Of a DNA stretch of 34,485 nt, positions 1-34,485 are shown one piece after another. The stretch is from IMG/VR virus record IMGVR_UViG_2531839587_000015; one strand, given 5' to 3'. The DNA comes from a virus. Taxonomy: Duplodnaviria > Heunggongvirae > Uroviricota > Caudoviricetes. The position numbers and the translations under genes are program-made. Numbering within the stretch: the stretch's first letter is position 1; the number at the start of each line of letters is the position of its first letter. Below the pieces are notes generated by a model that had not been told where the DNA came from, made no database searches, and worked only from the letters and a program-made list of their open reading frames with translations.

Positions 1-54
1 TTAAAATCCCTCGGCGTTCGCGCTGTGCGGGTTCAAGTCCCGCTCCGGGTACCA
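1..54 (+). tRNA. leuZ: 3' portion of tRNA-Leu(UAA), truncated by window start (anticodon loop, long variable arm, T-arm, CCA end)
   Basis: Sequence ttaaaatccctcggcgttcgcgctgtgcgggttcaagtcccgctccgggtacca matches the recalled 3' end of E. coli tRNA-Leu(UAA): T-arm GCGGG/CCCGC, GGTTCAAGTCC T-loop, terminal ACCA. Confidence 0.8.
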
Positions 55-206
55 TGGGAAAGATAAGAATAAAATCAAAGCAATAAGCAGTGTCGTGAAA
101 CCACCTTCGGGGGGGTTTTTTGTATTTGTATTTTGTGCAATGGCGGTGGAGTGGCGATGGTGTGGCGATATGCAGAAACAATAGTAGTGCACGTGCTGTT
201 TAAACT

Positions 207-254
207 CTAAGGATGAAGCCGAATTCTCCTGCAGCTCCTCCGTATTTCGCATAG
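207..254 (-). pseudogene. Hok-family toxin remnant: only the C-terminal ...LCEIR... codons remain; about 130 nt including the start codon are missing relative to the copy at 1067-1207
   Basis: Minus-strand translation gives LCEIRRSCRRIRLHP*. Flanking DNA aligns with the 3' end of the intact hok at 1100-1140, and the adjacent leader (255-365) aligns with 1255-1380. Confidence 0.5.
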
Positions 255-365
255 TGAACTAGGACCTCGGTTAAACAAAAATTTTTCTGGGATTTTTCCA
301 CTCGACTTCATTTTTCCTCCTGCCATCCACCAAAAGGTACCTGCGCTAATCTGTCTTTTTTAATC
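255..365 (-). repeat. hok/sok-like leader region, copy A (homologous to 1255-1380)
   Basis: Shared blocks cctcggttaaaca, tttccac, cctcc..ccatc..cc.aaagg.acc..cgc.taatct...tttttt with the region upstream of the intact hok ORF. Confidence 0.55.
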
Positions 366-593
366 TGACAACATCCTGAGAAAAGGCAAAATCGTCAGAT
401 TTACTGTTTTTCTGCTGCCTCGAATGCCGATGTCTGCAGCACTGATAAGAGCTCTATCTCTTTGATATAGATCTTTTTTTTGATGAATTGCACGGCATAT
501 TATCGTTATGACACCTTCTTGTTAAAGGTGTTGTACTCCACATCTCGATTTTATGATGTGGGTTATGATTGGTTAGTAATAGAGTGTATCGGT

Positions 594-875
594 ATGCGAT
601 GTGGTTTATTAATGGCAATCTGTTTTTGTTTGGTATCTTTTAGTGGGTATGCAGCAACAGGAAAGTCTGATGCTCAGATCAAGAAAGAAATAATTAAAGA
701 ATCCATTGAATCGTATCCAGGCAATTGTGCGTGTCCTTATAATCATGCAAGGAATGGTAGTAGATGTGGTAGACGCAGTGCATATAGCCGTACTGGAGGG
801 TATGACGTGGTATGTTATGAGAGTGATGTTACGGATGAAATGATCCGGCAATGGAAGCAGGAGAATGCTGAGTAA
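594..875 (+). CDS. Small secreted Cys-rich protein (signal peptide MRCGLLMAICFCLVSFSGYAA; motif CACPYNHARNGSRCGRRSAY resembling YHYH-type proteins); AT-rich gene
   Basis: ORF 480-875 in the track. An internal Met at 594 begins a typical signal peptide; the 38 residues before it look non-native. Low-GC coding sequence. Confidence 0.55.
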   Translation: MRCGLLMAICFCLVSFSGYAATGKSDAQIKKEIIKESIESYPGNCACPYNHARNGSRCGRRSAYSRTGGYDVVCYESDVTDEMIRQWKQENAE

Positions 876-952
876 TCACTTTTAACTGGTTTGTTTTGCG
901 AGCATTATGTGTGTTGTTAACGGTACCCTAGCTAAGTGAGAGCTCCAAAAGA

Positions 953-985
953 AAACCCGCAGTTTTTACGCTGCGGGTTTTCTTG
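953..985. terminator. Bidirectional rho-independent terminator (cccgcag / ctgcggg stem flanked by A-run and T-run)
   Basis: Hairpin aaaacccgcag-tttttacg-ctgcgggttttc lies between the convergent + strand gene ending at 875 and the - strand hok ending at 1067. Confidence 0.65.
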
Positions 986-1066
986 TTTGTGTCCATGGGA
1001 TAGGGTGCCACTTCGGCCAGCCTTAGCAACCGATTGACGGGGGATTGCTCCCCCGTCGCGGTTTCC

Positions 1067-1207
1067 TTACTGCTTACACTGTAAGAACGCCGCAAACTCC
1101 GCTCCCCAGAAGCTCATCCGTATTTCACACAGCGAACCGTGCAGCATCCAGATGATGAGGATTACCGTCACGCAGAACGTGATGGCCATAAGCGATTTTT
1201 GCGACAT
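1067..1207 (-). CDS. Hok/Gef-family type I toxin, 46 aa (MSQKSLMAITFCVTVILIIWMLHGSLCEIRMSFWGAEFAAFLQCKQ)
   Basis: Own translation; absent from the ORF track because it is under 60 aa. Single TM helix plus the conserved SLCE(I/L)R and AAFLxCK motifs of HokA-like toxins. AAGGAG Shine-Dalgarno 10 nt upstream. Confidence 0.75.
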   Translation of the reverse strand: MSQKSLMAITFCVTVILIIWMLHGSLCEIRMSFWGAEFAAFLQCKQ

Positions 1208-1254
1208 AGCGCTTGCTCCTTTTTTGGGGAGGCGCTAACCTATCACTTGCTAAG

Positions 1255-1385
1255 GTTAGATGGTCAGGGCCTCGGTTAAACAGAAATGTTTTCCGGGGCC
1301 TTTCCACATCTGGCCTTCGGGTATTCCCTCCAGCCATCAGCCGAAAGGCACCCGCGCGTAATCTATCGCTTTTTTGTTACTCCGG
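1255..1385 (-). repeat. hok/sok-like leader region, copy B (mok/sok/translational-activation region upstream of intact hok)
   Basis: Homologous to 255-365. The SD region is embedded in a GC-rich pairing context typical of hok mRNAs. Confidence 0.5.
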
Positions 1386-1397
1386 CAATTCAGCCTG

Positions 1398-1658
1398 TTA
1401 ATTCTGAGGTAAGGGCAAACTCATTTGGTTGTTTCCCCTGTGCGAAGCTGGCAGCTCATTCCACGGGATGCCCTCTGAAGAGTGAACGCCTGGGGCGTGT
1501 TTCGATGTGAATTTATGGAAAGCCTCCAGTGTTGAGAAGCATACGCCGCATTCCAGGTTGTTACACTGGTAATATTTTTTCCGCACGGTATCTGAATCAT
1601 TTTCCGAACGACTGGTGCGGATACGGGCAGATGCGCCACAAAGCGGACAACGAAACAT
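1398..1658 (-). CDS. ogr: Ogr-like zinc-finger late-gene transcription activator
   Basis: MFRCPLCGASARIRTSR...YYQCNNLECGVCF shows the CxxC...CxxxxC pattern and N-terminal similarity to P2 Ogr. GGGAGG SD 5 nt upstream of the ATG. Confidence 0.85.
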   Translation of the reverse strand: MFRCPLCGASARIRTSRSENDSDTVRKKYYQCNNLECGVCFSTLEAFHKFTSKHAPGVHSSEGIPWNELPASHRGNNQMSLPLPQN

Positions 1659-1761
1659 AGCGACCTCCCTTAACGTAGTACTGTCGCTAGTTTAGGCTGA
1701 ACTTACTCAGACTCCAACTGATAGTTCGCTTTGTTTACTGATGCCGTAGAAAGGTCTCTTA

Positions 1762-1792
1762 GCAAGAATAACCCCAGTTTAACACTGGGGTT
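1762..1792 (-). terminator. Rho-independent terminator downstream of the moron gene (ccccagt / actgggg stem, U-run on the minus strand)
   Basis: Hairpin aaccccagtttaacactggggtt followed on the minus strand by uuauucuug. Confidence 0.6.
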
Positions 1793-1807
1793 GCTTGCAA
1801 CAGAGCG

Positions 1808-2461
1808 TCAATTTTTAAGAGCGCCGATACAGAAAAATTGCATGACATTTTTCTTTATTGATTTAAATAGGCTAAATATTGTGATAGGTCTAAAGCTAGT
1901 CAACTCGCTGAATTCTTTTCTCATTTGGGAAAGTAACTGCCGACGTACTGATTCAATTTCTGCTGTTTGAGCTCTCAAATATCTTGAGAAATCAAGTAGT
2001 TCATCAGCTGTTTTGTTTTGGCTATTTATAAACGTAACAGGTTGCCCTGGCTTAGATATGAGAAAGAATTGATCAATTTTATCAAGTAATGGTGGAATTA
2101 TTTGTTTCCATTCAGCCCATTCTTTTTCACGATGAAACTCCAGGCTGTGCTGACATGCTCTGAGTTGCTGTATATCAATCGCCCAGACCTCACTCTCATC
2201 GAGGCAATCTTTCCATTTGCTAATTACATTAATGTCAAATTTTTTGTTCGGTCGATAATCTTCTTTGGCGCGCGCTTCCAGTATAGAGGCAAGGCTACCT
2301 GTATATTGCATCAAATTGGTAGATGCTCGGTTTACTAGCTCAGATATTCGATCTAGTTGAGTTGTTCTAATCTCAAGTGCTTTCTTTTTACGTTCATTTC
2401 GTAAAGCAAAATATGCAGCAAGGCAGACTGCAGCAACTGTGGCTGCTGGTTGCATATTCAT
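1808..2461 (-). CDS. Moron: membrane-anchored hypothetical protein, 217 aa (N-terminal TM helix QPAATVAAVCLAAYFAL + KKK, then a soluble alpha-rich domain); AT-rich
   Basis: ORF 1808-2485 in the track. Start placed at the Met at 2461, which has an AGGA SD 8 nt upstream. Lies between ogr and D, where P2 has no gene. GC clearly lower than the flanking phage genes. Confidence 0.6.
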   Translation of the reverse strand: MNMQPAATVAAVCLAAYFALRNERKKKALEIRTTQLDRISELVNRASTNLMQYTGSLASILEARAKEDYRPNKKFDINVISKWKDCLDESEVWAIDIQQLRACQHSLEFHREKEWAEWKQIIPPLLDKIDQFFLISKPGQPVTFINSQNKTADELLDFSRYLRAQTAEIESVRRQLLSQMRKEFSELTSFRPITIFSLFKSIKKNVMQFFCIGALKN

Positions 2462-2655
2462 AACATGGATCCTCTGACATGGCATTTATGGGCGCTATTT
2501 CAGCAGTAATCATTTGTGTGTAAATTTGTTTGCTACAAATTAACATATTCTAATGTAAGGTACTTCTGATTTTGACACTTGGTAGGCTGTCAGATTGGTT
2601 ATGATTCTTGCTGTAGGCGCGTTAACAAATGTCAGGGCTAATGCATCTAAGTTGT

Positions 2656-3753
2656 TTACTCTGTTTCTGCTATCCATTCCGGGATTTTTGCTTCAAGCTC
2701 AAGCTGAGTGGTAAAGCCGCTGTTGTCAATGGTGTGCTCGGCTTTTGCAATAATCCAGTCCTGATTGTCAATGTCACTTTTGAAGCCTGTCACCGTGCCA
2801 TGCATTTCGGGATAGAGTTCTGCACGTCCACACGCCAGCGTGATGGAGAACGCTGCGGCTCCGCGTTGTAGCTGCTGCCACTTTGCCGCCGCTGCACGTC
2901 TTGCTGCCTGCTCGTTCTGATAAGTCTTGCGTAACACAAACACGTTGCCTTCCGCGCCTTCCATATAGTCGCCTTCCCGGCTGCTGCTTTTCTCCTTTTT
3001 CGGTTTGCGGCGTTTCACGCTGACTTTTTTCTTTTTCCCGTAATTAAGATCAAGCCAGTAGGCGCGTACACCCGTATACGCCTCGCGGTCAGCAATGCGG
3101 AACTGATGGCGATCGCCGCTGCTGCGTGTGATGGCAACGATGGCAAGGCTGGCCCTGTGCGTTCACGCCACCGCCGGCATGATGAATAACAGATTACCGC
3201 TTTTTACCGTGGTGATTGCGCCCAGCATTTCCGCCATGCGCGTAAGGAAGGACATGTCGCTTTCTTCAGTCTGGTCGGCGTGGTCGATTTCGATATCCAT
3301 CAGCATTTCGCTGATTTGCGGTTTCAGACCATACCGATGAGCGATGGCGGATACCACACGCTCAATGGTCACATCATGCCAGGACACCTCACGTTTAACG
3401 TTAAATTCATCCCGAAAATCTGCGCTTCTGGCTGAAACAGTCAGCCTGTCCGGCGGTCCTTCGTGAGCGATTTCATCAACAATGTAAGTGCCTTTTTCTG
3501 TCAGCGGTTCTCCTTTCCAGCCAATGAGAACCGTCAGGCGCGCGCCCCGTGGCGGTAGCTGCAACTGACCATCCGCATCATCCAGCGTGATGGTGAGCTG
3601 GTCCGCTTCAAATCCCCGGTTGTCGGTCAGTGACAGGCTCATCAGGCGCTCTGCCACGCCGGACAGCGTTTTCCCCTCCGCGAGAATATCAAAATCCGGC
3701 ATTTTCACGGGGTCTGTGCTCTGACTGAGCAATTGCATGGTGGTGTCGGTCAT
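2656..3753 (-). pseudogene. D: gpD tail protein (P2 D homolog) interrupted by a single in-frame TGA at 3163-3165
   Basis: Track ORFs 3163-3774 and 2656-3018 are in the same frame. The stretch between them translates without stops (THRASLAIVAITRSSGDRHQFRIADREAYTGV...) and matches gpD on both sides. Start placed at the Met at 3753 with a GGGAGGG SD. Confidence 0.8.
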
Positions 3754-3909
3754 CTTTCCCTCCCTGTGCGGCATGGTCGCATGTGCGTGCGGAGGGGGTT
3801 ACTGCTTTTTGTTGTCGCCGTGGCGGGAGAACGGCGCAGGGGTGAGATTACGCGCGTGGTGGGTGATGATTGTTGCCGAATCATTTAACGGATACAAGGG
3901 GCTGAAGCT

Positions 3910-5087
3910 ATGAGTGAAACTCGTTTTCATGGTGCCCGTGTTACGGAAATACCGACCTGGTAACAGCGATTAAGATGTTGATTCCAGGTTATCGGTATCG
4001 TGGCAACGGCGGATGATGCGGAGCGAGCTGTTCCCGCTGAACAAGCCCACACTGCTGACCCGCGTCAATGACGTGCTGGGAAAATGCGGACAACGGGACG
4101 CTTTATCGTGCGCTTAAGGCCATCGCAGACCAGGTGAGCACAAAGGTGATCGTCGTTCGCGTGGCTGAACACAAAGAAGAAGACGGAAAGACGCAGGATC
4201 AACTGGTTATCGGTGGTTCTGAGGATGACGGCAGCTATACGGGGATGTATGCGCTGCTTGTTGCAGAGCAGGATGAAAGCATCGGATACCGTCCGCGTAT
4301 TCTGGCCGCGCCGGAGCTGGACACGGAGGCGGTAACAAAATCCCTGTGCGTGATTGCGGGTAAACTGCGCGCGTTTGTGTATGCCTCATGTCACGGCTGT
4401 AACACGATGGCTGAGGCGATTACCTACCGCCAGAAATTCAACGAACGTGAGGTGATGCTCTTATGGCCGGACTTCATCGCCTACAACCCGAAAAGTGGCA
4501 AAAACGAAACGTTCCCCGCGCCTGCCTATGCGTGCGGCCTTCGTGCGTACATTGACCATGAGCAGGGCTGGCACAAATCGCTGTCCAACGTTCCGGTTAA
4601 AAATGTGCTGGGGATGTCCAGGCATGTGTTCTGGTCGTTGCAGGCCGAAGACAGTGATGCCAACAGCCTCAACAACAAAGAAATCACGACCATTATTCGT
4701 CGCAATGGGTTCCGCTTCTGGGGCAACCGCACACCGGAAACGAACGCCTACATCTTTGAGGTGTATACCCGAACCGCACAGGTGCTGGCTGATTCAATTG
4801 CGGAAGCGCAGTTTGAAACCATCGACAGTCCACTGACGCCTGCGAACGTGAAAGATGTTATCAGTGCCATCAGGGCAAAACTGGATTCACTGGTTACTGC
4901 CGGGAAACTGATTGGGGCGTCGTGCTGGTATGACGTGGTGGATAACGGCACCACGAATTTACGTCAGGGGCGCGTGCGTATTCGCTACAAATATACGCCT
5001 GTTCCCCCGCTGGAAGACATGGAGCTTTACCAGTCGTTTACTGATGAATTCTTTGGTCCCGCATTTGCGGTGCTGGGAGGTGCCTGA
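3910..5087 (+). pseudogene. FI: gpFI tail sheath; the first ~175 bp are broken by stops and at least two +1 indels; intact sheath frame from about 4083 to 5087
   Basis: ATG at 3910 with an AAGGGG SD encodes MSETRFHGARVTEI and then hits TAA at 3961. Sheath-like segments IGIVATADDAE, ELFPLNKPTLLTRVNDVLGK and NADNGTLYRALKAIADQ lie in three different frames. Downstream 335 aa match the P2 sheath. Confidence 0.8.
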
Positions 5088-5599
5088 TGGCTGTACCAAA
5101 ACATCTTCGCTTTTTTACGCTGTTTGTGGATGGTGAAAACGAAGTGGGTAAGGTGACGTCCGTCACTCTGCCTAAGCTGACGCGCAAAACCGACAGCTAC
5201 CGGGGTGGTGGCATGATGGGTGCGGTAAGTATTGATCTCGGTCTGGACGACTCCGCGCTTGATGCGAGCTTTGTCATGGGGGGCGCAGTTCGTGAGCTGT
5301 TCCTTAAGTATGGCGGCACGATTGACGGCACGCTGCTGCGTTTTGCGGGTGAATACTACACCGATGCAGAAAGCGACCTGTATGAAGTCGAAATGCGCGG
5401 ACGTGTGACGGAAATTGATATGGGGGAAGCCAAACAGGGCGAAGCCACATCACACACTTACGCCATTAAAAACACCTACTACAAGCTGAGTGTTAACGAT
5501 CGCCCGTTGTGGGAGATTGACCTGCTGAACTTCATTTACCGGAAGGACGGCAAGGACATTGTGCCCGATCGCATCCGTTCCGCGCTTGGGCTTGGCTGA
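5087..5599 (+). CDS. FII: gpFII tail tube protein
   Basis: 170 aa. Start overlaps the FI stop (TGATG). Similar in length and sequence to P2 FII (LPKLTRK..YRGGGM..DLGLDD motifs). Confidence 0.9.
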   Translation: MAVPKHLRFFTLFVDGENEVGKVTSVTLPKLTRKTDSYRGGGMMGAVSIDLGLDDSALDASFVMGGAVRELFLKYGGTIDGTLLRFAGEYYTDAESDLYEVEMRGRVTEIDMGEAKQGEATSHTYAIKNTYYKLSVNDRPLWEIDLLNFIYRKDGKDIVPDRIRSALGLG

Positions 5600-5653
5600 T
5601 AAGTAATATGCAGGCGGCGCAGTGCGTCGCCTCTGACTGAAAGGAGTTTCCTG

Positions 5654-6019
5654 ATGAAAGAGACGAAAAACATCGATACCGAAAACACGGTAGTTACTGA
5701 CACTGTGAAAGAAACCAGTGAGCGTGGCGTAAAACTTACCCAACCAATTGAGCGAGGCGGCGAAAAAATCACGTATGTGGAGATCACCGGGGCTATTGAG
5801 CAGGCTGGATCTCTGCGAGATTTGTCGCTGTCTGATGTGCTGAATCTGAAAGCGGAATCCATGTTTACGCTGCTGTCACGCGTGACATCACCGCGACTGG
5901 ATGAAGTGACGATCAAAAAAATGGCATCCCGTGACTTTATTCAGTTATGTGTGGTTGCCGTAAATTTTTTGAGCGGTGCGGACTCTGGCGGGAAGAACGA
6001 ACAGGCGACGGAAGCCTGA
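5654..6019 (+). CDS. E: gpE tail assembly chaperone
   Basis: 121 aa with AAGGAG SD. Sits immediately upstream of the tape measure gene and contains the TTTTTTG slippery site near its 3' end. Confidence 0.85.
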   Translation: MKETKNIDTENTVVTDTVKETSERGVKLTQPIERGGEKITYVEITGAIEQAGSLRDLSLSDVLNLKAESMFTLLSRVTSPRLDEVTIKKMASRDFIQLCVVAVNFLSGADSGGKNEQATEA

Positions 6020-6183
6020 TCACGGTTGTGTGCTTTGAGCACATAGAAGACTTTGTGGCGGATATTGCCGCCATTTTTAACTGGTCGCCCGCCGAAATCT
6101 TCATGATGACGCCCGGCGAAGTGGTTAGCTGGCGTGAGCGGGCGGCACTTCGCAGCGGGAATGCAGACAATGAAGACTCTTGA
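5654..6183 (+). CDS. E': gpE+E' fusion made by programmed -1 ribosomal frameshift
   Basis: The -1 frame ORF (track 5947-6183) continues past the E stop. Slippery heptamer TTTTTTG at 5965-5971 as in P2 E/E' (analogous to lambda G/GT). Confidence 0.7.
5965..5971 (+). other. Slippery heptamer T6G for the programmed -1 frameshift (E to E')
   Basis: aaaTTTTTTGag. The 0 frame reads N-F-L, and the -1 frame is open to 6183. Confidence 0.7.
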
Positions 6184-8977
6184 TATCCGGGTCGCTTTCA
6201 GCGCCGTTGACAGGCTGACCCGGCCTGCCGAAAACGCCCGCCGCCTGATGGGGCAGTTTGGTGACTCCATCCAGCGAACGCAGGGGGCGATCAAAAATCT
6301 CGAGCGTCAGGCGCGATCATTTGAGCGCGCCCGTGACGCTGTCAGTAAAGCGGATGCGGGCATCGTGAAAGCACGACGCCAGCTTAACGCCCTTAATCAG
6401 TTACAACGCACGGGTACAGTGCTCAGCGAAAAACAACAAAAGCTGATGCAGCAGTTAAGCACCCGGCTTGAACGCCTGAATGAATCGCGCACACGGGAAA
6501 TTCAGAAAATGCGGGAACTTGGCGGAGAACTGAAACGCCACGGCATTTCCCTGACAGGCAGCGATAACACCATCCAGCAGGCCATCAGACGCACCGAACA
6601 GTACAACAACCAGCTTGAACGCGAACGGCAGGCGCTTGCGCGTGTAACGCAGGCGCGTGAGCGGTATTCGCGCGCGCAGGAAAACGCGGGAAAACTGAAA
6701 ACAGGTGGTGCGCTGGCAATTGGTGCGGCAGCGGCTGGCGGCTATGCTGCCGGGCGTTTTTTGCAGCCTGCGATCGGGTTCGGCAAAGAGATGTCCCGCG
6801 TTCAGGCACTGACGCGAATCGACAAAAACAGCCCGCAGTTTAAGGCGCTGCGTGAGCAGGCGTTAAAACTTGGCTCTGAAACACAGTTTACTGCGAGTGA
6901 TGCCGCCAGTGGGCAGAGCTTTCTGGCAATGGCTGGTTTTACTCCGCAGGCCATTCAGGCCGCATTGCCCGGTGTTCTTAATATGGCGCTGGCAGGTGGC
7001 GTCGAACTCGGCGAGACGGCTGATATAGGCTCCAATATCCTCACACAGTTCAATCTGACAGCCGATCAAATGGACCGGGTTGGCGATACGCTGACAGCGG
7101 CATTCACCCGGACCAATACTGATTTACGCGCGCTGGGCGAAACCATGAAGTATACCGGTCCGGTTGCCGCAAAACTTGGTATCAGTCTTGAAGAAGCGAC
7201 GGCCATGGCCGGGATGCTTGCCAATAATGGTCTTCGCGGAAGCGATGCTGGTACGGCCATGCGCGCAAGTCTGTCCCGCCTAGCATCACCGCCAAAAGCT
7301 GCGGCTGATGCGCTGAAAGAGCTGGGGGTGTCAGTTGCTGACGCCAGAGGCAAAATGCGCCCGATGGAGGATGTGCTGCTTGATCTCTATAAGGCGACAC
7401 AAAAATACGGACAGGTGGACCAGGTCTCCTTCTTCAAGGACATCGCCGGAGAAGAGGCGTTCGTTGGTTTGCAGACGCTTGTTGCGGCGGCTGGTTCAGG
7501 AGAGCTGCAAAAACTGACCAGAGAATTGCAGGGGGCAAAGGGAGAGGCCGATCGCGTTGCAAAAGTAATGGCCGATAATCTTGATGGGGACCTGAAAAAT
7601 CTCGACAGCGCATGGGAAGGTCTTCGTATTCGCATCAGTGATCTGGTTGACGGTCCGCTGCGTTCTGTCACGCAGTGGCTCACGCGGGTGCTTGAAAAAA
7701 TCACCTCGCTGGCGCAGGCCCATCCGGTACTGACACGCCAGCTACTGATAGCAGGCGGTGCGTTGCTGGCAATGACTGCAACGATTGGCTCGTTGTCGCT
7801 GGTTATTGGGGTGCTTTACGGAAAGCTGGCCACCCTGCGTCTTGGTTTTGACATTCTTACCCGGTCAATGAATGTCGTCAGGGTGTTGCCTGCGCTGTGG
7901 GGAATGCTGACGGGTTCCGTTTCTTTGCTGGGAGGCGCTATCGGAGCGCTGTTCAGTCCGGTTGGTCTTATCGTGGCTGCGCTTGCCGGAGCTGCCGTTC
8001 TTATCTGGAAATACTGGGATCCCATCAGGGCATTTTTTGCCGGGGTGTTCAGCGGGATTATGGAAAGGCTGACCCCGTTGCGCGAAACCTTTGAACGGTT
8101 TGGCCCTGTTTTTGACGCAATCGGAAGCGGGATCAGCCAGGTGTTTAACTGGTTTAAATCGCTGCTGTCACCGATGGAGTCCAGCAAGGAAACGCTGGAT
8201 AAATGTACCAGTGCTGGCGAGATATTCGGTAACGTTCTTGGCGGTGCGTTACAACTTGTTCTGACACCTGCAAAAATGCTACTGGATACGCTGGCGTGGA
8301 TACTTGAAAAACTTGGCGTCCTTCCGGATGAAGCGGAAAGGGCGCGCAAGAAAATCGAAGACGCACAGCGTGCGGCCATTCTTCAGGACAAGGTTGCCTT
8401 ACTTCAGGGGGACCTGGCGAAAATCAATCCGCCGAAGCCTGTGGAAAATGGCAATGGCACCGGAGGTGATAACCCCAAAGACAACAAACCGCTCACAGAC
8501 AGCAATACCGGGACGCTACGCAGACTCAGCAAAATTGCTGATAACACAGGTAAGCTGGTTGATGAGACGAAAAAACGCATTGGCCCCGGCGATATTGTCT
8601 TTAAGAACCTGCCCCGCGCACTTGCTGTTCGTGGGGAGTGGCAGGAGCGGAAGATTGCGCAGGTCAGTAAGCCTGCCCCCGCAATTAATATCACCCCCGT
8701 GGTCCCGGCTCCGCTGCCTCCGGCGCTGGTCCCTGTTGTTGCGGCCAGCTCCCGCCCGGTGGCGGAGGCCATACGATCTCCAGTGGCATCAGTTCCTGTA
8801 ACTTCCCGTAACCGGGAGCCTGTTGCCTCCGGATTTGGTGGTGAAATTCATGTTCATCTGCATAACGTTGTTACGCAGAATCCCCGCGAACTGGCGAAAC
8901 TGGTCGGTGAAATGGTCAGGGCAGAAATGGAACGGCGTGCCCGTGCCGGGCGTGGCAGTTTTTACGATAAAGATTGA
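6161..8977 (+). CDS. T: gpT tail tape measure protein (about 939 aa)
   Basis: Long alpha-helical protein with internal hydrophobic segments, directly after E/E'. Start is uncertain: in-frame ATGs at 6134, 6161 and 6170. Confidence 0.9.
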   Translation: MQTMKTLDIRVAFSAVDRLTRPAENARRLMGQFGDSIQRTQGAIKNLERQARSFERARDAVSKADAGIVKARRQLNALNQLQRTGTVLSEKQQKLMQQLSTRLERLNESRTREIQKMRELGGELKRHGISLTGSDNTIQQAIRRTEQYNNQLERERQALARVTQARERYSRAQENAGKLKTGGALAIGAAAAGGYAAGRFLQPAIGFGKEMSRVQALTRIDKNSPQFKALREQALKLGSETQFTASDAASGQSFLAMAGFTPQAIQAALPGVLNMALAGGVELGETADIGSNILTQFNLTADQMDRVGDTLTAAFTRTNTDLRALGETMKYTGPVAAKLGISLEEATAMAGMLANNGLRGSDAGTAMRASLSRLASPPKAAADALKELGVSVADARGKMRPMEDVLLDLYKATQKYGQVDQVSFFKDIAGEEAFVGLQTLVAAAGSGELQKLTRELQGAKGEADRVAKVMADNLDGDLKNLDSAWEGLRIRISDLVDGPLRSVTQWLTRVLEKITSLAQAHPVLTRQLLIAGGALLAMTATIGSLSLVIGVLYGKLATLRLGFDILTRSMNVVRVLPALWGMLTGSVSLLGGAIGALFSPVGLIVAALAGAAVLIWKYWDPIRAFFAGVFSGIMERLTPLRETFERFGPVFDAIGSGISQVFNWFKSLLSPMESSKETLDKCTSAGEIFGNVLGGALQLVLTPAKMLLDTLAWILEKLGVLPDEAERARKKIEDAQRAAILQDKVALLQGDLAKINPPKPVENGNGTGGDNPKDNKPLTDSNTGTLRRLSKIADNTGKLVDETKKRIGPGDIVFKNLPRALAVRGEWQERKIAQVSKPAPAINITPVVPAPLPPALVPVVAASSRPVAEAIRSPVASVPVTSRNREPVASGFGGEIHVHLHNVVTQNPRELAKLVGEMVRAEMERRARAGRGSFYDKD

Positions 8978-8989
8978 GGAGTCATGGCC

Positions 8990-9478
8990 ATGATGATGAT
9001 CTACGGCATGTTTGTTTTTGAGCTGCGCACGCTGCCGCATCAGCAGTTACAGCAAAACAAAAGCTGGCGGCATGTGAAAAATGAACGCGTTAACCGTTCA
9101 GCAAGCTGGCAGTATATCGGTGCAGGTGATGATCGCATCGTTCTTTCTGGTGTGCTTTATCCTGAAATTACTGGCGGCGAAGTGTCGCTGTCGCTGCTGA
9201 CCACGCAGGCGTATACCGGACGCCCCTGGCCTCTGATTGATGGCGTCGGGCAGATTTACGGCATGTATGTCCTGACCGAAACGAGTACGACCCGCTCTGA
9301 GTTTGATCGCTACGGTAAGGCGAAAAAGATAGAATTTTCACTAACCCTTGAACGCTGTGATGAGGATTTGCGGGAACGCCTGCAATCCTCATCATTCAGC
9401 GATATGCTGTCCGGCTTCAAAGATAAGGTGACATCATCTCTTAACAGCGCGGCCAGTTCAGTTAAAGGGCTGTTCTGA
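8990..9478 (+). CDS. U: gpU tail protein
   Basis: MMMIYGMFVFELRTLP... resembles the P2 U N-terminus. GAGGA SD 9 nt upstream of the ATG at 8990. Confidence 0.85.
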   Translation: MMMIYGMFVFELRTLPHQQLQQNKSWRHVKNERVNRSASWQYIGAGDDRIVLSGVLYPEITGGEVSLSLLTTQAYTGRPWPLIDGVGQIYGMYVLTETSTTRSEFDRYGKAKKIEFSLTLERCDEDLRERLQSSSFSDMLSGFKDKVTSSLNSAASSVKGLF

Positions 9479-9487
9479 TTAACGCAA

Positions 9488-9520
9488 AACCGCTAATGGT
9501 CAGATTAGCGGTTCTTTCTG
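9488..9520. terminator. Rho-independent terminator between convergent U and tail-fiber-assembly genes (perfect 10-bp stem aaccgctaat / attagcggtt)
   Basis: aaccgctaat-ggtcag-attagcggtt followed by ctttctg. Confidence 0.7.
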
Positions 9521-9599
9521 AAAGTGTTTCTCTGGAGCTGATAAAAACGTATTCCTCCTGAGAAGATTAAAATTTCTTATCAGGGAGCAGGAGAATAGC

Positions 9600-10010
9600 C
9601 TACGCCTCCGGCAGTTCAGGCCAGATGACATCCGGTGCGGTGCTGGTATCTGTTGCCGTCACCGCGTCGATATAATCCAGCACAACGTTAAGTCGGGTAG
9701 TTTCTTCTTGCGTCAGTTTGCGCCCGGCCTGCAGCTTTAACTGAATCACGCTGATATTGACCATTGCTGCGTCTATCAGCGACTGTTTTTTCTGTTCAGC
9801 GTCAGCTACCAGTTCATCATGAGAACGTTCCGGAGTGGGCGGCGCAGTAAATCCCCCGTCTGAATACGCCCAGCCGATTCCGGGCTGCTCACTGATATCA
9901 GAAATATTAATGAGCTGTAGATTATCCGGCACAGTGAATTCAGCCTCGCCATCCCAGGCAATTACATTCACAACCATCCCATTTTCAATAACTGCATATG
10001 ACGCATTCAT
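9600..10010 (-). CDS. Tail fiber assembly chaperone (gpG/Tfa-like)
   Basis: C-terminal ...DVIWPELPEA is typical of Tfa proteins. Start ATG overlaps the H stop (TAATG). Confidence 0.75.
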   Translation of the reverse strand: MNASYAVIENGMVVNVIAWDGEAEFTVPDNLQLINISDISEQPGIGWAYSDGGFTAPPTPERSHDELVADAEQKKQSLIDAAMVNISVIQLKLQAGRKLTQEETTRLNVVLDYIDAVTATDTSTAPDVIWPELPEA

Positions 10011-11911
10011 TATGCAAACTCCTCGATAATACAAATCCCTGCAGCGCCTTTCCCGCCCGTCATACTGGCTCCGCTATAACCAGCATCGTATGCACCACCA
10101 CCGCCTGAACCATATGCCTTACCGCTAACACCACCGCCAGCGCCTGCGCGTCCACCGCCGCCCCAGTGCGATGTTCCGCCTTCACCGCTGACGCTGATAT
10201 TCCCGGACTGACCGTCGCCTCCATTTCCACCAGTGATGTTGATACCGCCAGTACTTGGCACACCGCCGTTACCACCGTTCGTGTTTGTGACTCCTACTTT
10301 CCCGCCGCCTTCACCGCCAGGGGCTATTACCGTTCCGAACGAGCTATCACCGCCCTTGAGGCCGTTCGTCGCACCAACACCGCCGCCCCCACCTGCGCCG
10401 ATAGTGACAGGATAACTATCCTTCGTCAGGATCAGCGTGACAATTGCTGTTCCCCCAGCCCCACCGCCAGCACCGAAAAACGTTTCGTTATTGGATGTAG
10501 CCTGGCAGCCGCCCCCACCGCCACCGCCGCCCGTTATTGTGACCCTGATTCGTTTTGTTCCTGGCGTCGGGGTGTACGTACCTGATGACGTGAAAATTCG
10601 AGTGTTTACAAGGCGTCCAACATATCCGTTTGAATCGCTCAGGCCAAGGTCAGCAGTGGTAGGTTTAATATGTGAACTGTAAATTACATAGACCGCTCCA
10701 TCTGTCAGGCCTGTCGGTTTATTCGCTGTATAAGTTGGTGATGTATGAATCGTTACGCTGGCGTTACTGGTATAATCCCACTGGATATTTACACCCGTGG
10801 CGTAACCACCTATTTCAACATAAACATCATAGGTATCACCGGATGTATTCACCCATGCAAAATTAGTAAATCCAACCGATGTCCGTCGCCATAACGCACC
10901 AGTAAGACCTTTTGGATTCCCATTTCCCGCACGAAGAACAAGTTCAGATATACCAGCCTGCATAGGGGAGTTAACATTATATCCAGAACCACCAATCAGG
11001 CTTATGTAAACTACGGAACTTGCCTGTGGCATGGTTACAGTTGCCAGCTTGAACCATCCTGCACCACCAATAAAAGACATGGTTGTTGAATTTGTTGCAC
11101 CAATATTGCGCAGGAATAATCTTTTATCAGGAATATCCGCACCGTTCTGATCTTTCTGAAGACGTTTCTCAGCATTGTCATAGGCAGACTTCACCGCTTT
11201 CGGTGTTGCGGCCAGCGTTTCAGAAGTGCTATTGGTGGCGCTACTGAGCTGGACAAGACCTTTTCGCGCTGTGGTCGCGTCCTGTGCGGTATATTTCCCG
11301 TTAGCAAGGTCATATGCTGTCTTTACCGCCTTTGGCGTTGCCGCAAGCGTTTCAGAATCGCTGTTGGTTGCGCTGCTTAACTGAGTAAAACCTTTTGCGG
11401 TCAGCGATGCATCCGGGTGTCGTCGTGACTGTTCGTGTTCTGAGATTTTGTCATCCACATATTTACGGGTCGCCAGTACCACCGACGGGTCGATTTTCAG
11501 CGTGATGGCTTCGGTATTCGAGACAGCCAGAATCATGCGGATAGTCTGGGTACGACCACTGCCTTCCTGCAACTGCGGTTTGTACGTTTCCGGGCAATTC
11601 GCCACCGCAATGAGTACGCCTTCATCATCATAAAGCCCAATCTCACGGATCCAGAATCCTCCCTCGTTTTCAGGGATAATTTGTTCCGCAATAATCTGGC
11701 TCTGATTGTTAGGGTCAACACTCAGAAGATTCAGCGGTGCAATGCGTTTCTGGTTAATCAGTTTTGTTTGTGCAGGGTCTGGTGTTGGTAACACACCATT
11801 TGCATCACCAACGGCCATTTGCGTCAGATTCAGCTTACTGCCGAGCATCGTCGCGTTAGCCAGTCGTGCCGCGCCCTGATTAGTCAGAATGGCGTAGTAT
11901 TTCACTGTCAT
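10010..11911 (-). CDS. H: gpH tail fiber protein with internal repeats and a Gly-rich C-terminal receptor-binding region
   Basis: 633 aa. Conserved P2 H-like N-terminus (MTVKYYAILT...). Duplicated QLSSATNS.SETLAATPKAVK.AYD motif. C-terminal poly-Gly-rich domain. Confidence 0.85.
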   Translation of the reverse strand: MTVKYYAILTNQGAARLANATMLGSKLNLTQMAVGDANGVLPTPDPAQTKLINQKRIAPLNLLSVDPNNQSQIIAEQIIPENEGGFWIREIGLYDDEGVLIAVANCPETYKPQLQEGSGRTQTIRMILAVSNTEAITLKIDPSVVLATRKYVDDKISEHEQSRRHPDASLTAKGFTQLSSATNSDSETLAATPKAVKTAYDLANGKYTAQDATTARKGLVQLSSATNSTSETLAATPKAVKSAYDNAEKRLQKDQNGADIPDKRLFLRNIGATNSTTMSFIGGAGWFKLATVTMPQASSVVYISLIGGSGYNVNSPMQAGISELVLRAGNGNPKGLTGALWRRTSVGFTNFAWVNTSGDTYDVYVEIGGYATGVNIQWDYTSNASVTIHTSPTYTANKPTGLTDGAVYVIYSSHIKPTTADLGLSDSNGYVGRLVNTRIFTSSGTYTPTPGTKRIRVTITGGGGGGGGCQATSNNETFFGAGGGAGGTAIVTLILTKDSYPVTIGAGGGGGVGATNGLKGGDSSFGTVIAPGGEGGGKVGVTNTNGGNGGVPSTGGINITGGNGGDGQSGNISVSGEGGTSHWGGGGRAGAGGGVSGKAYGSGGGGAYDAGYSGASMTGGKGAAGICIIEEFA

Positions 11912-14337: not shown

Positions 14338-14978
14338 CGTACAGCCTCCGCAATCCGGCCCAGCACCGTGTTATAAATCAGGCGCTCATCTGCCTGGCTG
14401 ATACCCAACAGCTCACGTACCGGGTAATCGGTGAAAATGCCCGGCGCAACCTGATCGCGCTCACCGAACTGATGAACGCGGGCAATACGTGCGGCCACGC
14501 CGCTGTAACCCACCGTCACACCGGAAGCATCTGCACGGGCTTTCAGGTAGCGGGCGGTGCGCAGTTTTACGAACATGGGGACGCGCTTTGTGCTGTCCTG
14601 GTTGATGCGCCGGGTGCGTATTTCCAGAAAACGGTCGATGTCATCCCGGTAAAACGTGCGGATATTGTTTTTATCCTCATCCCACCCGGTAATGGTTCGC
14701 CCGTATTTCCCCGTGTCGTGATGCCAGTTTTTCAGCGTGCGTGCTTCGTTATTCCAGATAAAGCGAATGCGCTCCTGTATCCGGGTTACGCGGCGTCTGC
14801 GTGGTGTCCACGCGGTCCCGTCCGGCGCTTTCTGTGACCGGATACGCGCCTGCTGGGCGCGGCGTAAATCCTGTGCCAGCTTTCTGGCGATGTTATTGAT
14901 GGCCTGCTGATTCAGGCTGTCGCGGATAGCCTCAAAGGTTTCATCCACGCGGGTGAATGCCTTATCCATCGCTTTCAC
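14334..14978 (-). CDS. S: gpS-like virion morphogenesis / tail completion protein
   Basis: 214 aa, between R and V. Longer than P2 S (150 aa). Confidence 0.7.
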   Translation of the reverse strand: MKAMDKAFTRVDETFEAIRDSLNQQAINNIARKLAQDLRRAQQARIRSQKAPDGTAWTPRRRRVTRIQERIRFIWNNEARTLKNWHHDTGKYGRTITGWDEDKNNIRTFYRDDIDRFLEIRTRRINQDSTKRVPMFVKLRTARYLKARADASGVTVGYSGVAARIARVHQFGERDQVAPGIFTDYPVRELLGISQADERLIYNTVLGRIAEAVR

Positions 14979-15399
14979 CCCACGTCACATCCTGGAATAC
15001 ATGCGACCAGTCGCCTTCGGAAGAGGGCAGGCGGGGTTTTGGCTCCGGCAGGTGTTCTGCCTGCGGTGTGCCCTGACTGCTGCGCGTGATGCGAACGCGT
15101 TCCCGCAGGGGGAGCGTAAACAGGAGATCGGCGCTGTCATCGTCATTGATAACGGCGGAGAATTTGATGTCCTGATTACGCTCAGGGTTGAGCAACAACT
15201 GTGGCTGATTTTCGGATAACCACGCCAGCAGCGGCAGCGTGAGGTCGTCCAGCTCCCCGGCGTAATCCATGACAAACATCACCATCTGATAGCGGTAAAC
15301 AAACGAGGGCGTTTCTCCGGTCGTTTCAATGTTGCCGCTCTCCACGAAAATGGTGAATTTTTCCGGGTTAGCCTGACACCATCGGCATGAACGGGTCAT
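14962..15399 (-). CDS. R: gpR tail completion protein (as an internal-Met product; the native MLKP... start appears to be out of frame)
   Basis: C-terminal 145 aa of track ORF 14962-15735 match P2 R (..FTIFVESGNIETTGE..LPLLAWLSENQP..). An ATG encoding MLKL lies 27 nt upstream in another frame. Confidence 0.7.
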   Translation of the reverse strand: MTRSCRWCQANPEKFTIFVESGNIETTGETPSFVYRYQMVMFVMDYAGELDDLTLPLLAWLSENQPQLLLNPERNQDIKFSAVINDDDSADLLFTLPLRERVRITRSSQGTPQAEHLPEPKPRLPSSEGDWSHVFQDVTWGESDG

Positions 15400-15705
15400 G
15401 GCTTCACGCAGGGAATCAGTTTCAGCATGGTTGTTATCCTCGTTGTTCAGTCGTTGCAGCCTGCGCTGTTCCAGTAATTCAATGGCCCGTTTATCAGCGT
15501 TACAGGTTTCCAGTGCATCCAGAAGGCGGTCGCCCCATATACCGAGATTTCCCCATGTGGGAGTATCAGGGAAGGGGGGAGGCGTTACCGGTATGGTCAG
15601 CGTCTGCGGTATAAGCCGGACTGACGGCGCTGGCAGTGGCGCGTTCTGCGTGCCTGCGCAGCCTGTCAGTAAAACGAGCGTCAGGCAAAGCGTGGGCGCA
15701 TTCAT
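15400..15705 (-). CDS. lysC: LysC-like o-spanin lipoprotein (Rz1 analog), embedded in lysB in another frame; its reading frame continues into R without a stop
   Basis: MNAPTLCLTLVLLTGCAGTQ is a lipoprotein signal with lipobox, followed by a Pro-rich segment. No stop codon before the R coding region. Confidence 0.55.
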
Positions 15706-32705: not shown

Positions 32706-33032
32706 TCATGCAGCAAAATTAAGAAAGCCTAATCCCAAATCTTCCGCCAGCTTCTTGGCTTTATTAAGCCAGTGATTGCGCCAATCTTTACGCTCAGGAG
32801 GAAGTTGTTTCGTTGCGTCATAGACCATTTCGAGCCACTCGTTCCATAGGATGAGAAGGCGGCGTGAACTTCCTTCCTCGCCTAAAACTTCACGCTCAGT
32901 GGCCAGAGGGATGAGCCGACGTTCCACCAACTTTCTTACGGCTGATTCGGTCTTGCCCGTGCGGCGGGCAAATTCATCGACGGGGATGGGGTCTGGGATC
33001 TTAAACAATGCCCTCAATAGTTCTTCATTCAT
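32706..33032 (-). CDS. cox: Cox-like excisionase / early transcriptional regulator
   Basis: ..IPVDEFARRTGKTESAVRKLVERRLIPLA...W..W.. resembles P2 Cox. Divergent from C. Confidence 0.75.
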   Translation of the reverse strand: MNEELLRALFKIPDPIPVDEFARRTGKTESAVRKLVERRLIPLATEREVLGEEGSSRRLLILWNEWLEMVYDATKQLPPERKDWRNHWLNKAKKLAEDLGLGFLNFAA

Positions 33033-33126
33033 GTGATAATCTCCCTGTTTGGGGTATAGGTGAGATATTTACCCCATAGTTCAACTCATTGTTTGCATAA
33101 TGCACTACATATTTGGAGAATGCAAT
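33033..33126. promoter_or_regulatory. Divergent early promoter/operator region between cox (Pe) and C (Pc)
   Basis: Position between divergent cox and C as in the P2 immunity switch. Short inverted repeat ggggta...tacccc. No promoter elements assigned with confidence. Confidence 0.45.
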
Positions 33127-33429
33127 ATGATTTTGGAGATTGGTGAAAAACTAAAACTAATGCGTGAAAGTGAGCGCATTACAAGTCGCAATGAGGCTGC
33201 GGAGTTAATAGGTATTCCGCATAACGCGCTATGGCGTTATGAGACTGGCGAATCCATACCCAAAGGGGATGTAATGATGAAAATCTTAAATTGCCCGCGG
33301 TTCGAAAAATATGCCTTGTGGTTTATGACTGGAAAAATTGCGCCTGAATCCGGGCAGGTAGCTCCGGCTCTCGCACACTATGGGCAAGAGCCAACGGACT
33401 TACCCCCATCCGAAAGGAAAATTGGTTAA
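33127..33429 (+). CDS. C: C immunity repressor
   Basis: ..KLKLMRESE....L..L.G.P...L..YE.G.S.P..DVMMKIL..P.F.KY.LWFMTGKIAPESGQVAPALAHYGQ closely matches the recalled P2 C repressor. Confidence 0.85.
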   Translation: MILEIGEKLKLMRESERITSRNEAAELIGIPHNALWRYETGESIPKGDVMMKILNCPRFEKYALWFMTGKIAPESGQVAPALAHYGQEPTDLPPSERKIG

Positions 33430-33495
33430 CCCTTTATTATTCTTACGTTTTACAAACTGGGAATGTCTTTCCTCGTTTCACCGGAGGGCTTGCCA

Positions 33496-34485
33496 ATGGC
33501 AATTAAGGCACTCGATGGTGGACGGTATAAAGTGGATGTTAGACCGCGTGGCCGAAGTGGACGTCGGATTCAGCGGATTTTTAAGAAAAAGGCAGATGCA
33601 GTGGCCTTTGAGCGCTATGTTCTCAGCCACATGCACGATAAGGAATGGCTTGAAAAGCCAACAGAGCAACGTCATCTCTCAGATCTGCTTCCATTATGGT
33701 GGGAATTGGGTGGACGCAATAAGCCATATGCTAACGGCGTTCTAACCAGATTGAAAAAAATCATCAAAGAAATGAATGATCCAAGGGTTAGCCAGATTAA
33801 TGCTCGTTTCATGGCAGCTTATCGAAGCTCCCGTTTATCCTTAGGAGTAAAAGAATCTACTGTTCGGCGTGATGAGTCGGATCTCGGAGGAATGTTTACA
33901 CTCCTGGCAAATGCCGGGGAATTTCACGGAGAAAATCCACTCCGCGCCCTCCCCTCTTTGAAACGAAAATCACCCGAAATGACGTACCTCACCACGGAAG
34001 AAATCGCCAAATTGCTGGATGCAGTAAGCGGTGATGCCCGGCGGATTACGCTACTTTGTCTCAGTACTGGGGCGAGATGGGGAGAAGCGAAAAATCTGCG
34101 CGCGGAACACATCATCAATAATCGCGTGACGTTTAACAAAACTAAAAACGGAAAAGTTCGAATTATTCCTGTCTCTGATGAGGTTGTTAGTGAGATCAAA
34201 ACAAAGAAATCCGGCCTTTTGTTTGACGTCAATTATGAGGAATATCGCAAGGTGCTTCGCAGTGTTAAGCCAGACCTACCAAAGGGACAGGCTGTACATG
34301 TTCTACGCCATACCTTTGCAGCTCACTTTATGATTAATGGAGGAAATATACTTACGCTCCAGCGAATTATGGGGCACGCCACGATTCAGCAAACTATGAC
34401 CTATGCGCACCTCGCTCCTGATTTCCTCCAGGATGCAATTTCACTTAATCCGTTAAAAGGAGGCATCCACATTTCATCCACATAA
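33496..34485 (+). CDS. int: P2-type tyrosine integrase
   Basis: MAIKALDGGRYKVDVRP... N-terminus like P2 Int. C-terminal catalytic region contains the R...HxxR...Y tyrosine recombinase pattern (..VLRHTFA.H..). Track ORF begins at 33463. Confidence 0.9.
   Translation: MAIKALDGGRYKVDVRPRGRSGRRIQRIFKKKADAVAFERYVLSHMHDKEWLEKPTEQRHLSDLLPLWWELGGRNKPYANGVLTRLKKIIKEMNDPRVSQINARFMAAYRSSRLSLGVKESTVRRDESDLGGMFTLLANAGEFHGENPLRALPSLKRKSPEMTYLTTEEIAKLLDAVSGDARRITLLCLSTGARWGEAKNLRAEHIINNRVTFNKTKNGKVRIIPVSDEVVSEIKTKKSGLLFDVNYEEYRKVLRSVKPDLPKGQAVHVLRHTFAAHFMINGGNILTLQRIMGHATIQQTMTYAHLAPDFLQDAISLNPLKGGIHISST

Follow-up and report, generated by a model that had tools for sequence, protein, structure and literature searches.

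The broken 5' end of the tail sheath gene in a predicted P88-like prophage is very probably a consensus artefact of a collapsed two-haplotype repeat

In the gene map of phage P2, gene D lies downstream of U and on the same strand, unlike the arrangement in the DNA analysed here, a stretch of 34,485 nucleotides that we call the window. The window is a P88-like prophage (Xuanwuvirus, Peduoviridae). It aligns with P88, PhiR44_2, Shae_phiSM and phages 520873 and 500465-2 at 95-98% identity over about 80% of its first 25 kb, and it is collinear with P88, including the divergent orientation of D and FI. According to PMC5285337, the coverage of P2 by P88 DNA is only about 5%. The window starts within the 3' end of a tRNA-Leu gene and ends (position 34485) exactly at the stop codon of the integrase gene, and therefore corresponds to a predicted prophage cut-out and not to a packaged phage genome; positions 1-123, the att repeat, have matches at either end of the EC130 prophage.

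The divergent layout, with D on the minus and FI on the plus strand, is conserved in P88, PhiR44_2, Shae_phiSM, EC130 and SK1144, and the D/FI junction is bridged by matches in over 1100 complete E. coli genomes. Since this layout is standard in P88-like phages, there is no record-specific or recent inversion junction here. The sequence-only reading from which this work started had placed such a junction next to FI, and that claim has to be abandoned in view of the normal Xuanwuvirus layout.

Two features of this neighbourhood were recorded along the way. The slot between ogr and D holds an ORF of 217-225 aa (1808-2485, minus strand) with no Pfam match, also found in EC130 and 510016; in other P88-like prophages the slot is occupied by methylase/Com/TM2 genes, or by GmrSD in SK1144, and is thus a variable cargo slot. 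In addition, three RefSeq complete genomes give D a length of only about 263-266 aa, name it "VgrG/Pvc8 family" and place a short partial pseudogene next to it, the D protein of P88 having 366 aa:

EC130, 5352 to 6196: short D annotation
SK1144, 4784 to 5637: short D annotation
510016, 32768 to 33612: short D annotation

Two phage records, NC_049344 (phage 520873) and NC_049343 (phage 500465-2), have taxonomy lines with ICTV species names and contain many split genes, with D in three pieces in phage 520873 and the portal and large terminase genes each in three pieces in phage 500465-2. The private 1-nt gaps of phage 520873 fall on monomorphic columns, a different error mode from that of the window.

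The gene under study and what is left of its coding capacity in the record are the following:

3910 to 5087, plus strand: tail sheath gene FI, 1178 nt in the record against 1185 nt expected, with Pfam PF04984/PF17482 on its product
4068 to 5087, plus strand: longest remaining ORF, 339 aa, an N-terminally truncated sheath

Domains and synteny assign the FI product to the P2/P88-type contractile tail sheath (gpFI). Precomputed Pfam matches to Phage_sheath_1 and Phage_sheath_1C (PF04984, PF17482) lie on the 339-aa ORF, and the intact FI protein of a sibling assembly additionally matches PF22671. According to tblastn searches with P88 proteins, FI is followed, with the synteny of P2/P88-type phages, by FII (5087-5596), E, E', T (6170-8974) and U (8984-9475), all of them intact.

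Reading the sequence, FI begins with an ATG at 3910 that has AAGGGG, a good ribosome-binding site, directly 5' of it. The peptide that opens at this ATG, ahead of TAA 3961 and TGA 3979, is MSETRFHGARVTE; translated in three frames, the 3910 frame gives MSETRFHGARVTEIPTW up to the TAA at 3961-3963 and, beyond it, QRLRC up to the TGA at 3979-3981. The peptide IGIVATADDAE is again in the 3910 frame, ELFPLNKPTLLTRVNDVLGK is in the 3911 frame, and the 3912 frame carries GTLYRALKAIADQ and all of FI downstream, so that the first ~62 codons are scattered across three frames in the record. Likewise, tblastn with P88 proteins recovered FI residues 1-39, 40-62 and 65-394 in three separate frames. From 4095 to 5084 the gene is a single frame with 97.9% identity to residues 65-394 of P88 FI, and its stop codon ends at 5087. 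One unbroken FI ORF of ~394 codons is absent from the record and appears only once seven bases are restored. The sequence-only reading was accurate in this respect: it had reported the ATG with its Shine-Dalgarno at 3910, the stops TAA 3961 and TGA 3979, some 60 codons distributed over three frames and an intact remainder, and its frame labels (+1, +2 and +0) agree with the translation if frame is counted as coordinate modulo 3.

The lesions themselves are of another kind than had been proposed from the letters alone, namely at least two 1-nt insertions near 4024 and 4082 plus a scrambled segment at 3952-3990. Alignment of 3880-4130 to P88, PhiR44_2, Shae_phiSM and EC130, the kind of check that had been suggested, placed each FI indel and gave instead seven 1-nt deletions, after 3949, 3973, 3987, 4022, 4025, 4089/90 and 4094 (net -7), with neither insertions nor a scrambled segment in the FI 5' region in any of these alignments. 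The stretch 3950-3987 merely contains two more -1 shifts. Because the frame moves by -1 at every deletion, the FI peptides rotate through the three frames. The dropped columns are:

3949 to 3950, plus strand: dropped column 1, A or G in relatives, GGAAA[A/G]TACC
3973 to 3974, plus strand: dropped column 2, C/T SNP, TTAA[C/T]GATG
3987 to 3988, plus strand: dropped column 3, C/T SNP, CCAG[C/T]GTT
4022 to 4026, plus strand: dropped columns 4 and 5, GCGGA[C/T]GCG[G/A]AGC becoming GCGGAGCGAGC
4089 to 4095, plus strand: dropped columns 6 and 7, GCGG[A/G]ACAACGGGGAC becoming GCGGACAACGGGAC

Column 6 is an SNP column, and column 7 is one G of a GGGG run that is monomorphic among the relatives examined.

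When the first 10.6 kb of the window were aligned to EC130, its nearest complete genome, uncompensated deletions amounted to only 11 single bases, all between 3135 and 4094: three in D (3135, 3146, 3175), one at 3755 and seven in FI. This clustering is far beyond chance. Further damage was found at a distance, and the affected features outside FI are these:

2656 to 3753, minus strand: gene D (tail/late control), three SNP columns dropped, after 3135 (G/A), 3146 (C/T) and 3175 (G/T)
3755 to 3756, minus strand: missing G between the Shine-Dalgarno and the ATG of D
14962 to 15431, minus strand: tail completion gene R, one T of TTTT missing after 15422, at codon 3-4
18328 to 19378, minus strand: major capsid gene N, two bases missing after 18720 (G/A SNP column) and 18722, causing a frameshift

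Gene D has a net change of -3 and an internal stop at codon 197, and its 366 codons are intact once the bases are restored; restoration likewise yields an intact N (350 codons) and an R without internal stop. In tblastn searches with P88 proteins, no break was seen in the long genes A, T, P and Q, and the errors are therefore local to shared, mixed stretches and do not represent uniform noise. The position of lesions on both sides of the divergent D/FI intergenic region would fit damage left by a recent inversion or rearrangement adjoining FI, but similar lesions ~11-15 kb away, in R and N, and the D(-)/FI(+) layout conserved in the five relatives and more than 1100 complete genomes cited above make this origin close to negligible. 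Regarding the cause, the sequence-only reading had offered either damage linked to the rearrangement or a local low-quality assembly; the conserved D/FI synteny contradicts the former, and the latter holds.

Three other sources of such lesions were considered and discarded. Uniform sequencing noise or homopolymer errors do not agree with intact A, T, P and Q genes and with the location of most dropped bases outside homopolymers. Long-read methylation-motif errors do not apply to Illumina data, and the sites share no common Dam or Dcm motif. Programmed frameshifting (as in P2 E/E') or phase variation would have to involve seven sites and two in-frame stops, with no repeats or slippery motifs, in a gene that all relatives read in one continuous frame.

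To trace the record, we located its source: positions 1-11087 of the window are AQEG01000113.1, with 100% identity and no gaps, window position w being contig position 19490 + w. AQEG is a 2013 draft of the ETEC isolate 180600 (ST423, CS17, Bangladesh, run SRR446717), and APWY is the draft of isolate 178200, which is likewise ST423 and CS17. The genomes of the project were sequenced on Illumina HiSeq 2000 with 100-bp reads and assembled with Celera Assembler. In a search of ~15 billion proteins, the exact 339-aa truncated sheath was present on only three contigs, all of them NCBI Celera drafts, and the sheath protein cluster has 5003 members, listed mostly at 394 aa. A search with the exact T protein brought two further sibling drafts, AQAJ and AQAL. 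From their accession numbers only, which are adjacent to that of AQAM (P0304777_2), we infer that AQAO, AQAJ and AQAL would be colonies of one patient, P0304777.

Next, the window was placed in a multiple alignment with seven relatives, in which SNP columns were defined as the differences between two P88-like haplotype groups. Six of the seven FI deletions and all three in D sit on these inter-haplotype columns, the alleles being G/A at 3135, C/T at 3146, G/T at 3175, A/G at 3949, C/T at 3973, C/T at 3987, C/T at 4022, G/A at 4025 and G/A at 4090, and every SNP column from 3946 to 4094 is missing in the window. The identity of each missing base changes with the reference chosen. Simulated random single-base deletions were SNP-compatible in ~12-13% of trials, against 9 of the 11 deletions in the window (p ~5e-6, even with the null rate set conservatively at 0.17). 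Pooling the five drafts, with columns assigned across them by MAFFT --auto and a gap-shift test, gave 25 distinct dropped columns, 22 of them SNP-compatible (p between 5e-17 and 2e-14). Errors that coincide with positions of haplotype difference are what a collapsed repeat or mixed haplotypes would produce, and this coincidence was observed.

Among the 11 deletions at 3135-4094, monomorphic columns occur only at 3755 and 4094, and over all drafts the dropped columns that are monomorphic in the relatives compared are 4094, 7672 (in APWY) and 18722, together with the T-run deletion at 15422. The G loss at 3755 is also found in the RefSeq complete genome of 510016 and in the record of phage 520873, and is not seen in AQAO, APWY or AQAJ; its presence in 510016 and phage 520873 makes it probable that this is a genuine variant of the lineage, located in the D 5' leader and outside the artefact. 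At 9480-9485, just after the U stop, the window has two bases fewer than P88 and PhiR44_2, a difference which is also a genuine variant and not an artefact, since EC130 has the same sequence.

The sibling drafts differ from the window, and from one another, in which bases they lack. Each of the four drops a different subset of the shared SNP columns, and at column 3949 the five drafts read "-", G, A, "-" and A. In AQAO, gene D retains the three bases missing from the window and is without eight others, and the AQAO sequence at 3260-3372 is that of AQEG/APWY minus exactly their eight mutual SNP columns. AQAJ is also without 4190 and 4223-4225, where the same two haplotypes have their next SNP columns, and AQAO and APWY have one extra dropped base each in T. 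AQAL01000038.1 carries an intact 394-aa FI, and the window with seven bases added agrees with this gene in 1185 of 1185 nt. The sequence-only reading had named one uninterrupted frame over 3910-5087 as the observation that would refute its broken gene; this sibling draft in effect provides it, as a frame of 1185 nt that equals the window plus the seven bases. Over the D-U block, the five drafts make up a patchwork of two alleles, and the points at which the phase switches differ from assembly to assembly, so that the consensus alternates between two haplotypes and does so differently per assembly.

These comparisons bear directly on genuine pseudogenisation, according to which a decaying cryptic prophage would have suffered real single-base deletions in FI, D, N and R. 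The lesions are indeed present in the deposited record, four drafts of related isolates have the identical loss of six FI columns, which taken alone might also pass for inheritance, and the same gene is truly inactivated in relatives, with IS100 inside FI in 510016 and phage 520873. Nevertheless, we consider real decay very unlikely: the deletions fall on SNP columns, the siblings differ column by column with all three outcomes at a single column, and one sibling keeps the gene intact and is otherwise nucleotide-identical. In addition, 3860-4160 shows seven gaps and no substitutions against the best complete-genome alleles, which are identical to the window stretch except for these gaps, and this is the opposite of the natural decay spectrum. 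The FI deletions were present in none of the ~1370 complete E. coli genomes that have the region (BLAST, 5426 complete genomes), and scans with the exact 51-nt lesion gave no match in IMG/VR, GTDB representative genomes or JGI metagenomes. A pseudogene would be expected to show the same lesion whenever the clone is assembled independently, or to share it with other genomes, and such reproducibility was not found.

The shattered 5' end of FI is very probably no mutation of the bacterium but a consensus artefact of the draft, produced by a collapsed two-haplotype repeat. The evidence observed directly is that the deletions lie on SNP columns, differ between sibling assemblies and are absent from the gene of one sibling. 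As a mechanism, we propose that the ST423/CS17 clone, which seems to hold two P88-like prophages at the tRNA-Leu and bamD-raiA sites, would present the assembler with two D-FI-FII-E-T-U blocks ~97-99% identical, which 100-bp reads would collapse into one consensus. At haplotype differences, that consensus would take allele 1, allele 2 or neither, "neither" being a 1-nt deletion, and the base could be lost in the assembler's consensus itself or by a later stripping of ambiguity codes.

Whether the two haplotypes come from one genome or from more than one was judged on the sibling isolates and on complete genomes. Left flanks in the sibling contigs consist of tRNA-Leu with the 217-aa cargo ORF or of bamD-raiA with methylase/Com cargo, right flanks come with or without an invertase segment, and both are combined variously. 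Among complete E. coli genomes, some have the P88-like region in two or three copies (maximum three places per genome); in the AQEG assembly itself, no second prophage of this kind was found. The same artefact could have arisen from a mixed culture or from cross-sample carry-over between co-sequenced ETEC isolates, given that the data need only two haplotypes in the read set and that a single project sequenced many isolates. This origin is nonetheless unlikely, because the same haplotype pair recurs, with roughly balanced weights, in five separate isolates, the sibling drafts contain two distinct assembled chromosomal flanks, and several P88-like copies, in up to three places, can occur in one complete E. 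coli genome. The sibling isolates thus point to two prophages resident in one genome. The combination in APWY of a window-type left flank with an invertase-type right flank was considered as proof of a chimeric join and dropped, as strain 510016 naturally has the same combination.

A last possibility accepts the deletions as genuine: two ~98%-identical co-resident prophages would recombine and form heteroduplex DNA, in which some repair activity would excise the mismatched nucleotide where correction would be expected. It would leave -1 deletions at former SNP sites that differ per colony, and we regard it as barely credible.

Beyond FI, the effects of the collapsed consensus may extend to genes that look healthy. 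The tape-measure gene T (6170-8977, plus strand) is unbroken and is a two-haplotype patchwork; its exact 935-aa sequence occurs only in three Celera drafts of the project and may be a chimeric protein encoded by no cell. As a separate observation, the tail-fibre gene at ~10010-11911 (minus strand) codes for 633 aa in the window against 721 aa in AQAL, and a stretch of ~200 nt of it, especially 11171-11377, aligns at two sites in AQAL, a pattern suggestive of an internal repeat unit that the window record either lost by collapse or truly lacks.

For the locus itself, the shattered FI is not a real feature: it is an ordinary data-quality problem with no biology to pursue, and the prophage almost certainly has a normal sheath gene. 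For users of such data, prophage regions from the Illumina/Celera ETEC drafts (prefixes such as AQEG, AQAO, AQAJ and APWY) contain false frameshifts and, in any stretch common to two related prophages, chimeric "patchwork" genes. Records of this kind inflate pseudogene counts and make intact prophages seem defective, and through them databases gain proteins that may exist in no cell, such as the 339-aa "sheath" and probably the 935-aa T. Single-base gaps that sit exactly on SNP columns and differ between sibling assemblies offer a cheap screening signature.

Among known systems, the window may be compared with P88, with which it shares the D(-)/FI-FII-E-E'-T-U(+) order and whose sheath (YP_009113092.1, NC_026014) differs from the repaired FI product by 7 mismatches in 394 residues, the difference being that the P88 FI is intact at 1185 nt. 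With P2 gpFI, the product shares the same Pfam domains (Phage_sheath_1 / Phage_sheath_1C). The FI of E. coli 510016 and Escherichia phage 520873 is that of a prophage of this lineage, likewise at tRNA-Leu and with the 3755 variant, but it is interrupted by IS100, an interruption found in both a RefSeq complete genome and a phage record and therefore a real disruption, unlike point deletions on SNP columns. The closest comparison is AQAL01000038.1, whose contig begins 58 nt upstream of FI: its FI is nucleotide-identical to that of the window at all 1178 shared positions, its T protein (935 aa) and downstream gene order are the same, and it differs in FI by the seven extra bases that give an intact 394-aa sheath.
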